From positions 1 through 28,555 of the forward strand of contig DASQTT010000121.1 of the NCBI GenBank assembly GCA_035641735.1: a DNA stretch of 28,555 bases, in the 5' to 3' direction. How positions within the stretch are numbered: the first letter of the stretch is position 1; each line of letters starts with the position of its first letter. Under the pieces are notes generated by a model, which saw only the letters and a program-made list of their open reading frames with translations, searched no databases and was not told where the DNA came from. The DNA comes from Actinomycetota bacterium (lineage in GTDB: Bacteria > Actinomycetota > UBA4738 > HRBIN12). The translations under genes and the position numbers were made by a program. Below are positions 8,961-16,020 of the stretch, piece by piece.

Positions 8961-9761
8961 GTGGGCTTCTCGAGCGCGCTCGTGCTGTTCGCCCACCCGG
9001 ACGACGCCGAGTTCTCGTGCGGCGGCACCGTCGCGCGGTGGTGCCGCGAGGGCTGCGACGTCCATTACGTGTGTATCACCGATGGCTCCGCGGGCTCGAA
9101 CGACCCCGGTACGACCCGTGAAGCGATGCGCGATGTGCGGGCCCGTGAGCTCCAGGCGGCGGCCGACGTCCTCGGCGTGGCGTCCGTGACCTTCCTCGGC
9201 GAGCTCGACGGGTTCCTCGAGGTGACCGCGGAGACGCGCCGGAAGGTGACCCGGGAGGTTCGCCGGCTGCGGCCCGAGGTGATCGTGGCGCCGGACCCGT
9301 CACGGCTCTGGTACGGCAACAGCTACATCAATCACTCGGACCACAAGGCCGCCGGCGCGCTGGCGCTCTCGGCGGTCATGCCGGACGCGCCGACCCGCGT
9401 CCTCTTCCAGGAGCTGGAGGACGAGGGCATCCAGCCGTTCGAGGTGCCGAACCTGTACCTCGTCGCCGACGAGCCCGACACCTTCGTCGACATCACCGAG
9501 ACGTTCGACGTGAAGATCAAGGCCCTCCTGGCCCATGCCTCGCAGATCGGCGACGGGATGGAGGAGCGGGTCGCCGAGCGTGCTCGCGCGCTCGGCGAGC
9601 TGGCCGGTTGCGAGTACGCCGAGGCATTCAAGACGTTCGCGTTCGTGGACGAGGGGTCTGGGGAGCCCGATCAGCGCGAGTGGAGCCCCCAGGGAGCGGG
9701 GTCTGGGGGCTCAACCAGCGAACGCGACCAGCGCGAGCGTAGCCCCCAGGAAACCGGATAG
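8961..9761 (+). CDS. PIG-L/LmbE family deacetylase (MshB/BshB-like) with a repeat-derived C-terminal tail
   Basis: AHPDDAEFSCGG, R.RE..AA..LG, HSDH and HASQ motifs. GTG start 6 nt after TACGCT. The last ~38 codons come from two repeat copies. Confidence 0.88.
   Translation: MGFSSALVLFAHPDDAEFSCGGTVARWCREGCDVHYVCITDGSAGSNDPGTTREAMRDVRARELQAAADVLGVASVTFLGELDGFLEVTAETRRKVTREVRRLRPEVIVAPDPSRLWYGNSYINHSDHKAAGALALSAVMPDAPTRVLFQELEDEGIQPFEVPNLYLVADEPDTFVDITETFDVKIKALLAHASQIGDGMEERVAERARALGELAGCEYAEAFKTFAFVDEGSGEPDQREWSPQGAGSGGSTSERDQRERSPQETG
9644..9692 (+). repeat. Palindromic repeat family, copy 1 (internally deleted)
   Basis: CGTGGACGAGGGGTCTGGGGAGCCCGATCAGCGCGAGTGGAGCCCCCAG. The first 20 nt are identical to 15948-15967. 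Confidence 0.85.
9698..9749 (+). repeat. Palindromic repeat family, copy 2
   Basis: GGGGTCTGGGGGCTCAACCAGCGAACGCGACCAGCGCGAGCGTAGCCCCCAG, with a perfect 9-bp CTGGGGGCT/AGCCCCCAG stem. Confidence 0.88.
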
Positions 9762-9772
9762 GCGAGGGGACG

Positions 9773-10273
9773 ATGGAAGAGCCCGAGGAGCCGTACGAGC
9801 TCACGCCGGAGGAACGCAAGGACATCCAGGCCGACCTGGACGACCTGGCGTCGATGCGCACGGCGTTCGGCGGCCAGGGCGTGAAGGGCGTCGTGATCGC
9901 CTGCCAGGAATGCGGTTCGAACCACTTCTATGAATGGGAGCTGCTCCGCGACAACCTCGAGCACATGCTGACGTCGGGGGAGCCTCGGATGCACGAGCCC
10001 GCCTACAACATCGTCGAGGAGGAGTACATCCAGTGGGACTACGGCAAGGGCTACGTCGACGCCCTCGCCGACACCGGGCTCGACCTCGACCGCCGGATCG
10101 AGGTCAAGAGCTGCCCGTGGTGCCAGACGCCCCTCGCCGACGATCACGCCTACTGTCCGCGATGCGGGCGCTCGATGGGTCCCGTCCGGCTCTATCAGGA
10201 GCTGATCGGCAAGGGGATGGACGACCGCGACGCCCGCGCCCTCCTCGTCCGGGCCGGATTCGAGCCGATCTAG
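9773..10273 (+). CDS. DUF5319-like actinobacterial protein with a C-terminal zinc ribbon
   Basis: DLDDLASMR...GVKGVVIACQECGSNHFYEWELLRDNL...HEPAY.....EYIQWDYGKGYVDAL, then CPWC...CPRCG. GAGGGG SD. Confidence 0.75.
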   Translation: MEEPEEPYELTPEERKDIQADLDDLASMRTAFGGQGVKGVVIACQECGSNHFYEWELLRDNLEHMLTSGEPRMHEPAYNIVEEEYIQWDYGKGYVDALADTGLDLDRRIEVKSCPWCQTPLADDHAYCPRCGRSMGPVRLYQELIGKGMDDRDARALLVRAGFEPI

Positions 10274-10332
10274 GTCTCTCTTGACTGGGGCTACGCTCGC
10301 GCTGAGCGTGCTCGCGGCTCGAGCCTCAGATC
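10273..10332 (-). repeat. Palindromic repeat family, copy 3 (intergenic, inverted)
   Basis: The minus strand reads GATCTGAGGCTCGAGCCGCGAGCACGCTCAGCGCGAGCGTAGCCCCAGTCAAGAGAGACC. It fills the gap between the two convergent stop codons. Confidence 0.8.
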
Positions 10333-10334
10333 GC

Positions 10335-14710: not shown

Positions 14711-15580
14711 ATGCCCAGAGCCATGTGGAAGGGAGCTATCTCCTTCGGCCTCGTCACGATCCCCGTGAGCGTCTATCCGTCCACGGAGGAGAAGACGCTC
14801 CGGTTCAACCAGCTGCACGACGAAGACGGCGGACGGATCCGCATGAAGCGCGTGTGCTCGGTCGACGGCGAGGAGGTCGGGTACGAGCACATCGTCAAGG
14901 GCTACGAGTACGAGAAGGATCGGTACGTGATCCTGACGGACGAGGACTTCGACAAGGTTCCCGTCGAGTCGTCGCGTCAGATCGACATCCAGCAGTTCGT
15001 CGATCTCGAGGAGATCGACCCGATGCTCTACAAGAAGTCGTACTACCTCGTCCCGGAGGAGACGGGGGCGAAGGCCTACGCGCTGCTCCGCGAGGCGATG
15101 AACAAGGCCGGCAAGGTCGGCATCGCCAAGGTGAGCTTCCGCGACAAGGAGCATCTCGCGGCGTTGCGTTTCAGCGACGAGGCCTTCGTGCTCGAGACGA
15201 TGTTCTGGCCGGACGAGATCCGCGAGGCGGACTTCGGCGGCGTGGACGTCGACGCGAAGATCCGCGACAACGAGCTCGAGATGGCGCAGACGCTGATCGA
15301 CAACCTCACGTCTGACTGGGATCCCACCCAGTACACGGACCAATACCGCGACGGGCTCCTCGGGATCGTCGAGGCGAAGATCAACGGCCAGGAGATCGAG
15401 GTCGTCGAGCCCGAGCCGACCGCCAAGGTCGTCGATCTCATGGAGGCGTTGAAGGCATCGGTGGCGGCGGCGAAGAAGGAGACGAAGCCGGAGCCCAAGA
15501 AGCCGGCCGGGCGCAAGCCTGCAGCGAAGAAGCCCGCCGCGAAGAAGACGGCGCCTCGGAAGAAGGCCGTGGGGGAGTGA
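14711..15580 (+). CDS. ku: NHEJ Ku protein with a basic PAKK-type tail
   Basis: [35 protein letters not shown]...[22 protein letters not shown]; K/P/A-rich tail. GGAGG SD. Confidence 0.96.
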
Positions 15581-15605
15581 CACTCCCGGCACCACGGGCG
15601 GGCCG

Positions 15606-15944
15606 ATGAAGCTGATCACGGCGATCGTGAAGCCGCATCGGCTCGACGAGGTGAAGGACGCTCTCCGCGAGATCGGCGTGAACGGCCTCACGACCACCGA
15701 CGTCGAGGGGTTCGGGCGGCAGCGGGGGCACACCGAGGTGTACCGCGGCGCCGAGTACCAGGTGGACTTCGTCCCCAAGGTCCGGGTCGAGGTCGTGGTC
15801 GACGACGCGGACGCGCAGGGCGTCGTGGACGCGATCGTGAAAGCCGCGCGGACCGGCAAGATCGGCGACGGCAAGCTCTGGGTGAGCGACGTCGAGCAGC
15901 TGATCCGGATCCGGACCGGCGAGATGGGCCCCGACGCGCTGTAG
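15606..15944 (+). CDS. glnK: Nitrogen regulatory protein P-II
   Basis: 112 aa; [27 protein letters not shown] (Tyr51 intact), [15 protein letters not shown]. It could equally be named glnB. Confidence 0.95.
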
Positions 15945-15947
15945 CGG

Positions 15948-16020
15948 CGTGGACGAGGGGTCTGGGGGCTCAAGAAGCGAGCGCGATCAGCGCGAGCGTG
16001 GCCCCCGTCAAAAGGGACCC
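15948..16020 (+). repeat. Palindromic repeat family, copy 4 (longest; overlaps the glnD start)
   Basis: CGTGGACGAGGGGTCTGGGGGCTCAAGAAGCGAGCGCGATCAGCGCGAGCGTGGCCCCCGTCAAAAGGGACCC. Confidence 0.88.

Follow-up and report, generated by a model that had tools for sequence, protein, structure and literature searches.

The window considered here is a stretch of 28,555 nucleotides (contig DASQTT010000121.1, positions 1–28,555, read on the forward strand) from a metagenome-assembled genome (MAG) of an actinomycetote of the UBA4738 lineage. This genome, labelled G000 (2.03 Mb, 70% G+C, 330 contigs, 83% complete), as relatives and other genomes are labelled by further G numbers, carries within the window four copies of a short palindromic repeat, three of which are translated as parts of a PIG-L-family gene and of glnD, and one of which follows ligD. 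A first-pass annotation, made from the sequence alone, had described them as a dispersed, structured repeat resembling repetitive extragenic palindromic (REP) sequences or miniature inverted-repeat transposable elements (MITEs), and the present analysis supports this description. The sequence shows all four copies where that annotation had seen them, and the covariance model places the three full units there. The annotated consensus is correct, as are the GTAG motif, both GCGAGCG blocks and the CTGGGGGCT/AGCCCCCAG stem. A covariance-model search revealed no copy in the window beyond these four.

Copies 1 and 2 lie head-to-tail on the plus strand, with a period of 57 nt. Copy 2 (9694–9756) is a full unit, scoring 71 and 69 bits with R1 and R2, respectively, the two covariance models of the long form of the repeat, the former made from G000 copies; its predicted folding energy is −31.4 kcal/mol. 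Copy 1 (9644–9692) is a deletion derivative, truncated so as to be without the 5' half of the core (GCTCAAGNAGCGAGCGC), which was recognized by sequence and detected by nhmmer alone, weakly (9663–9691, E 0.005). Together, the two copies make up the final ~36 codons of an open reading frame (ORF) featuring a GlcNAc-PI de-N-acetylase/MshB-like domain of the PIG-L family (8094–9761, plus strand; Pfam PF02585, 5e-30, residues 296–427): copy 1 encodes part of the C-terminal tail, and copy 2 is read in frame (GSGGSTSERDQRERSPQ), the stop codon being found at 9759–9761. In 24 out of 24 genus mates the PIG-L gene ends with ...FRFVDDED*, its stop abutting the start of a DUF5319 gene, while in G000 FVDE is followed by the two units and by ETG*. 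The portion of the ORF from 8094 to 9065 overlaps a 549-codon minus-strand ORF (7416–9065), and the true PIG-L start is probably located well downstream of 8094.

The DUF5319 gene (9773–10273, plus strand; Pfam PF17252) separates copies 1 and 2 from copy 4. It is found at the same locus in 24 relatives, in which both of its flanks are empty, and is therefore to be regarded as a resident gene and not as cargo. This comparison includes the unpublished genome G005, on which the outcome does not depend; G005 is also counted in the genus copy-number and Y1 transposase tallies given below, and the scan of rpoB-rpoC loci in other genera includes G402 and G123. Copy 4 (10277–10339, minus strand; 55 bits with R1) is a full but degraded unit in a convergent spacer. 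It begins right after the stop codon of ligD (TAA, 10335–10337, minus strand; distance 0), shares the orientation of this gene, and is bridged by a contig from an independent sample. The LigD protein (10335–13427, minus strand) features primase-polymerase, phosphoesterase and ligase domains (Pfam PF21686, PF01068, PF13298, PF04679).

Copy 3 (15953–16015, plus strand; 72 bits with R1) is a full unit that entered glnD, the gene for PII uridylyltransferase (15949–18477, plus strand; Pfam PF08335, HD, ACT), in frame, behind approximately its third codon, and contributes ~19 residues (GSGGSRSERDQRERGPRQK) near the N-terminus of the protein. The preceding gene, encoding a P-II nitrogen regulator (glnB/glnK; 15606–15944, plus strand; Pfam PF00543), stops 4 nt before the glnD start. 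Alignment with five relatives shows that their glnD starts at a GTG located 8 nt after the glnB stop and proceeds straight into the conserved N-terminus; in G000 the GTG is kept at 15949 and is followed by two codons, by the unit in frame (~19 codons) and then again by the conserved sequence. Since the equivalent GTG is retained, the element is not the source of the start codon. Some of the copies are also similar beyond their own limits: copies 1 and 3 share nine identical bases of 5' flank, GTGGACGAG (9645–9658 and 15949–15962), which in copy 1 are native PIG-L codons, and a 3' extension, GTCAARAGRGACC (10273–10285 and 16007–16019), is common to copies 3 and 4 and is found nowhere else in the genome. 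This suggests a local copying process that may take along flanking sequence.

Within the whole G000 genome, 48 units at 38 loci were identified by nhmmer, and 44 matches by covariance model, with E values from 1e-16 to 1e-4. Further genomic copies, the existence of which had been proposed as a check, are thus found far beyond chance; here and below, copy counts from genome searches are lower bounds, 35–150 candidates having been scored per genome. The unit is 55–60 nt long and is laid out as GGGGTCTGGGGGCT-CAAGNA-GC-GA-GCGC-loop-GCGC-GA-GC-GT-AGCCCCCAGGAG. According to RNAalifold and to explicit pair counts, it folds into a 9-bp G/C outer stem, a purine-rich 6 x 2 internal loop in which CAAGNA faces GU, a 2-bp helix, tandem G.A/A.G pairs and an inner stem of 4–5 bp. 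Single units have predicted folding energies between −26 and −31 kcal/mol. The conserved GTAG is an internal part of the fold and occupies the base of the 3' arm: its G and U are unpaired, while its A and G pair with C and U of the 5' arm.

Both stems covary, with 92% of the cells paired and both sides varying in 10 out of 15 pairs. None of 500 shuffles matched the observed score, and only 30–49% pairing was obtained when the partner columns were slid. Compensation is evident at the stem base, where CTG/CAG, TCG/CGA, CCG/CGG and GTG/CAC occur, in GGGGACT/AGTCCCC, and next to the G.A pairs, where C26-G45 is replaced by U-A, with both sides changed. The latter replacement fits pairing, not the conservation of a direct repeat: the two GCGAGCG blocks, originally described as direct repeats, do exist, but they pair with each other, forming a single helix that contains the tandem G.A/A.G pairs. 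Two known RNA motifs were considered for the core, from its sequence, and rejected: the K-turn, a 2-bp helix being interposed between the bulge and the tandem G.A pairs, and loop E, which the strand polarity does not fit.

A search of Rfam at permissive thresholds gave no match at E<=1 over positions 9400–16300, and chance-level matches alone on arrays of the long and the short form; a literature search for the core sequence retrieved no relevant paper. We regard the repeat as a new family of elements similar to REPs, mycobacterial interspersed repetitive units (MIRUs) and Rickettsia palindromic elements (RPEs).

For the analysis of genomic localization, genes around the copies were called from ORFs with high GC3 and with GC1 > GC2 (G+C at the third, first and second codon positions). 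About 80% of the loci fall outside ORFs. The upstream gene shares the orientation of the unit at at least 21 of the 27 loci where the upstream flank is callable, and a stop codon is found 0–55 nt before the unit at about 14 loci (11 by ORF calls, the others from sequence), at six of them within 0–3 nt. The unit is usually followed by a ribosome-binding site of the GGAG type and by the start codon of the next gene. Between convergent genes, it trails one of the two, in the sense of that gene, as copy 4 does behind ligD. Several highly expressed operons contain copies, namely rpoB-rpoC, rpoA-rplQ, atp, nuo and glnB-glnD. Head-to-tail arrays of 2–3 units are common, with periods of 54–63 nt; a translation constraint on the period was considered and rejected, about half of the periods being multiples of three. 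A three-unit array in contig C82 starts at a TGATG and ends at the ATGA overlap with the next gene, but overlap of stop or start codons by frames of the unit is found at some loci only (C82, C328/L041).

The family had been described as mostly translated. This is true for the window, with three out of four copies, but not genome-wide, where about 7 out of 36 loci (9 units) are translated and most copies lie just behind stop codons; two further loci with putative genes may stop inside the unit. Ortholog comparison bears out the claim that copies 1, 2 and 3 share one reading frame (GSGGSxSERDQRERSPQ). Elsewhere in the genome, translated units are found in DNA polymerase I (PolA residues 466–482, in the linker before the polymerase domain), in DnaE (residues 1012–1028, within the HHH_6 stretch), in the acidic C-terminal tail of AtpA, which contains two units, and at the C-termini of a MalK-like ABC ATPase and of NuoE. 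The frame GSGGSSSERDQRERSPQ is used by four of the translated genes elsewhere in the genome and by both window genes; NuoE and DnaE are read in the second open frame or in one that combines the two. On the sense strand of the unit only one frame contains a stop, the TAG of GTAG, and two are open; on the antisense strand stops occur in two of three frames. The proposal that the element adds charged tags to protein termini holds for the PIG-L C-terminus and the GlnD N-terminus, but is too narrow, since the polA and dnaE insertions are internal. A copy in Brevundimonas G132 (L116, 1440–1570) is in frame with a long ORF, close to the 5' end of the latter (MNIVVTPPKTSEAQEAQAASDRVASDSLPLKDARDEV...), indicating that in-frame tolerance is not confined to Actinomycetota.

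Comparison with relatives identified a number of filled and empty sites. In polA, G000 features a clean 60-nt in-frame addition between ...QLF(T/A) and EDPW, absent from five relatives. The dnaE site contains the element in five of six species (G000, G012, G042, G020, G014) and lacks it in the sixth, G003; a G6/C6 stem, unusual for the family, is common to all copies at this site and points to one old, vertically inherited insertion. In the dnaE gene of G014 (L143, ~1800–1950) two tandem units are found, across which the reading frame shifts; this break may stem from a homopolymer error of long-read sequencing, or else the essential gene may truly be frameshifted. Six species of the genus, namely G000 (contig C66) and five relatives, have one or two units in the rpoB-rpoC spacer, which is empty in G042 and in 26 scanned loci from other genera of the family; deep conservation at this site was therefore rejected, since it is filled within the genus only and not in all its members. 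Copy number also varies, from 44 in G000 to 1–14, under stricter filters, in its genus mates, while two genomes of another genus contain at least 73 (G110) and at least 20 units. Overall, matches were found in 8 out of 33 sampled genera of the family. The clean empty sites of the relatives indicate that the element has been mobile. No larger parent element was found, an all-against-all BLAST of 400-nt flanks revealing no homology past the unit.

The first-pass annotation considered the repeat lineage-specific, which did not prove correct, the core being found also in other actinobacterial families, in Brevundimonas, in viral contigs and in plasmids. When one genome of each GTDB species was scanned for the exact pattern, the long form was found in MAGs of soil Actinomycetota and in two from Brevundimonas. 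Models R1 and R2 gave matches in a few actinobacterial families only, and none in most of those sampled; the long-form model matches 2 out of 121 sampled Alphaproteobacteria. A closed Brevundimonas chromosome contains at least 59 model matches, including an array of six units, with a period of 49 nt, which is preceded by a stop codon and followed by a genuine intrinsic terminator. Brevundimonas units feature other outer stems and another apical loop, but retain GCUCAAGNAGYGAR ... YGARCG(N)UAGC, with compensatory changes.

A short form of 30–40 nt, in which a GCGAAGC mini-hairpin replaces the inner stem, was detected in other actinobacterial families and in G000 itself. Long and short forms thus coexist in G000, where short-form arrays with a period of 33 nt are found in contigs C200 (998–1102) and C251 (3657–3744), with units GCGCTCAAGCAGCGAAGCGATAGCGC and GGGCTCAAGCAGCGAAGCGATAGCCC; the C200 array begins right behind a TAG stop. 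Among 401 actinobacterial species sampled, 21 have the exact short core, with a concentration in four families; so do 3 of the 400 Alphaproteobacteria sampled, while a reversed control pattern gave 0 matches in 800 genomes. The short core also occurs in 24 IMG/VR viral contigs (60–69% G+C), mostly between a stop and the next ATG and in sense orientation, and in plasmids of Cereibacter, Asticcacaulis, Rhodovulum and relatives; no short-form match was found in the named phages of INPHARED. In the Asticcacaulis excentricus plasmid pASEM-1 (L182, 1501–1527), a short unit lies in the partition-replication operon, between a ParB/RepB gene and the replication initiator gene, co-oriented with both. 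Two inverted units, 30 nt apart, are found between divergent transcription units in the alphaproteobacterial G342 (L150, 1510–1625); this is the only REPIN-like doublet arrangement observed, the few inverted pairs being limited to this genome. The parts conserved across Actinomycetota, Brevundimonas, viral contigs and plasmids are only the CAAGNA/G(N)U loop and the G.A-closed inner module.

The d(GCGAAGC) mini-hairpin is known as a very stable DNA or RNA hairpin with a GAA loop, and is a structural motif, not a repeat family. The short form bears exactly GCGAAGC as its apical module, and the long form features the same G.A closure around an inserted inner stem; by analogy, this stable motif may be relevant to the recognition of the element.

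A mobilizing enzyme was searched for by means of PF01797, the profile of the Y1 transposases of the REP-associated tyrosine transposase (RAYT) family. None was found in G000 or in 26 other genomes of its genus (13 of these 27 are at least 90% complete), nor in the high-copy G110, G128, G342, G131 and G132, nor in the complete Brevundimonas chromosome; only 1 out of 81 genomes of the order contains one, and that genome is without the element. As a positive control, the same search detected the profile in 6 out of 14 control genomes. The statement that the window contains no cognate transposase thus stands and extends, as regards Y1 enzymes, to the genome and the genus; the RAYT-type mobilizer that had been suggested for search was not found.

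A replication-strand bias is expected for single-strand transposition of the IS200/IS605 type. In the closed Brevundimonas chromosome, where dnaA lies at 577 kb, 22 copies are oriented with replication and 23 against it, which argues against a single-strand transposition specific for the lagging strand; in G088 the copies, eight in number, are too few to judge. The orientation that follows transcription can reflect selection, since a copy in antisense introduces stop codons and folds less stably, being rich in pyrimidines; alternatively, it can reflect a mechanism acting on mRNA or on the exposed non-template strand.

Taken together, these observations make it probable that we are dealing with a small hairpin element of the REP, MIRU or RPE kind, which is non-autonomous and spreads by copy and paste. 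The element amplifies locally into tandem arrays. A trans-acting factor, other than a Y1 transposase, would recognize the folded single strand, through the CAAGNA/G(N)U loop and the G.A-closed inner module, and would copy the element to new sites with ragged ends. Once transcribed, the hairpin (−26 to −31 kcal/mol) may act as REPs do in E. coli mRNAs, either as a barrier to 3' exonucleases or as an intercistronic structure. The copies that persist have the sense of the neighbouring gene and are found right behind its stop, between cistrons, or in frame within tolerant protein segments. Selection would retain harmless placements only; the Gly/Ser/charged peptide of ~19 residues encoded by intragenic copies would be tolerated rather than useful. 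More tentatively, and with odds that we consider to be against it, the conserved non-Watson-Crick core, in its minimal form GCGAAGC, might be the recognition element of a mobilization or RNA-handling system common to soil Actinomycetota, some Alphaproteobacteria and their phages and plasmids; the repeats would then form a Y1-independent class of mobile hairpins, the insertion of which would be tied to the transcribed (non-template or mRNA) strand and not to the replication fork.

Several results weigh against a mobile element. No mobilizing enzyme was identified; target-site duplications, inspected at four empty/filled pairs, were never convincing; no defined termini were seen, the ends outside the stem being ragged. 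Transposition is thus deduced from the empty and filled sites only. Mismatches within the stems, about 15 G.U and 11 A.C, are similar in number, and do not discriminate between RNA and single-stranded DNA as the selected form. The bias for sense orientation, with no replication-strand bias in Brevundimonas, also fits a host-selected RNA function. Lastly, the gene calls around the copies are heuristic, based on ORFs and GC3 and not on a gene finder.

Some of these points lead to an explanation in which the repeat is primarily a cis-acting RNA module of the host, such as the site of an RNA-binding protein or RNase, or a barrier to decay setting the relative stability of cistrons, repeatedly recruited to 3' untranslated regions and intercistronic spacers, mobility being secondary. 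The orientation of the units follows the flanking transcript not only in Actinomycetota, but also in Brevundimonas and in viral contigs; the non-Watson-Crick core is kept across phyla while the stems covary; copies sit in highly expressed operons, from rpoB-rpoC to glnB-glnD; replication-strand bias is missing, and the Brevundimonas array lies between a stop codon and a true terminator. We nevertheless judge this explanation unlikely, because site occupancy is not conserved even within the genus, and copy number varies from 1 to more than 70 among relatives. An RNA regulatory role is also hard to see for copies inside coding regions of essential genes; moreover, the taxonomic distribution is patchy (8 out of 33 genera of the family, 2 out of 121 sampled Alphaproteobacteria), and no Rfam family matches the repeat.

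In Proteobacteria, small dispersed hairpin repeats are well studied and are moved by RAYT transposases. The family described here resembles the proteobacterial REPs, bacterial interspersed mosaic elements (BIMEs) and REPINs (PMC3733652, PMC2817692) in being a short GC-rich hairpin, present in tens of copies, mostly extragenic, behind genes and sometimes clustered, with a stable 3' hairpin expected in the mRNA. Like REPs, it features a conserved GTAG, the TAG of which can be a stop, and has occasional copies within ORFs; GTAG ends of known REPs can indeed supply TAG stop codons, and intragenic REPs have been described (PMC3733652). In contrast, the unit is longer and composite, with two helices, an asymmetric purine loop and tandem G.A pairs over its 55–60 nt; its GTAG is internal, at the base of the 3' arm, and not a terminal 5' tag; units are arranged head-to-tail and not as inverted doublets; orientation follows transcription, and no RAYT was found in the genus or in high-copy carriers. 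That we are dealing with classical REPs or REPINs, moved by a RAYT (TnpA_REP, a Y1 transposase) merely missing from incomplete assemblies, would account for the hairpin, the high copy number, the extragenic bias and the GTAG, but is highly improbable, given these differences, the lack of replication-strand bias and the failure to find PF01797 in the genus and in the carriers searched, by a procedure that detected it in control genomes.

As to assembly or binning artefacts, a possibility raised by the first-pass annotation, or chance GC-rich palindromes, the MAG is fragmented into 330 contigs, at the ends of which several copies are found, as expected of repeats that break assemblies, but the probability of either is negligible: contigs from independent soil metagenomes, of other samples and other studies, bridge the copies, and depth peaks at them, so that an origin in assembly is excluded; all of the 24 genus mates, including long-read assemblies of 4–20 contigs, have the family; chance is excluded by covariation, with its shuffle and slide controls, and the reversed-pattern control gave no match. 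Two further identifications were rejected. GCTCAAG resembles the R'' site of integron attC at 6 out of 7 positions, but no GTTRRRY partner (R') is present and the flanking genes are core housekeeping ones; in a CRISPR array repeats would not abut without spacers, as these units do.

To our knowledge, the spread of MIRU-like and RPE-like repeats has never been explained. As summarized in PMC3184786 and PMC12548453, MIRUs are tandem units of 40–100 bp found in operon spacers, co-oriented with the flanking genes, with ORFs that overlap neighbouring stop and start codons. The occurrence in Actinomycetota, the tandem arrays, the location in operon spacers, the co-orientation, the empty and filled sites between relatives and the lack of a known transposase are features which our family shares with MIRUs (PMC3184786, PMC12548453). 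It differs in having a conserved, covarying hairpin and periods of 54–63 nt not restricted to multiples of three, and the tetranucleotide direct repeats reported for MIRUs were not seen at this element (PMC3184786, PMC12548453). The resemblance is one of layout and orientation, and no sequence relationship was shown.

RPEs (Ogata et al. 2000, cited in PMC3184786) are 100–150 bp long and confined to Rickettsia. As in RPEs, the palindrome is found in frame within protein genes, including essential ones, encodes a short peptide in tolerant regions and has no associated transposase; unlike them, it measures 55–60 nt, or 30–40 nt as the short form, lies mostly between genes, and its core is common to more than one phylum. 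In-frame insertions absent from orthologs were found in PolA, DnaE, GlnD and the PIG-L tail, while the tails of AtpA, NuoE and the ABC ATPase are read in frame; the comparison with RPEs made in the first-pass annotation is thus apt, in view of the insertions inside polA and dnaE. An assignment to MITEs was rejected: the outer stem could pass as terminal inverted repeats, but no duplication was found at the four empty/filled pairs, and no homology extends past the unit.

The family offers a workable case for such repeats, with a defined covarying fold, recent and ancient insertions with clean empty sites, and in-frame inserts in polA, dnaE, glnD and atpA. As no Y1 enzyme was found and the core occurs across two phyla, viral contigs and plasmids, its mobilizer can be searched for by phyletic profiling, and the question of RNA versus DNA can be tested in cultured carriers, namely Brevundimonas or, for the short form, Asticcacaulis or Cereibacter. 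In practice, repeats of this family fragment assemblies made from short reads, lengthen or disrupt the ORFs called, and can cause start codons and C-termini to be wrongly annotated in MAGs of soil actinobacteria.

Besides the repeats, the region 10335–15580 of the window contains a non-homologous end-joining pair, formed by the multidomain LigD (minus strand) and Ku (plus strand), with an HD-domain gene between them. The C-terminal part of this HD_5/HD-domain ORF (12991–14595, plus strand) is composed of a 33-nt (11-codon) tandem repeat (14334–14568), present in ~7 copies with 64% matches, the peptide period of which is rich in Val, Asp and Gly.

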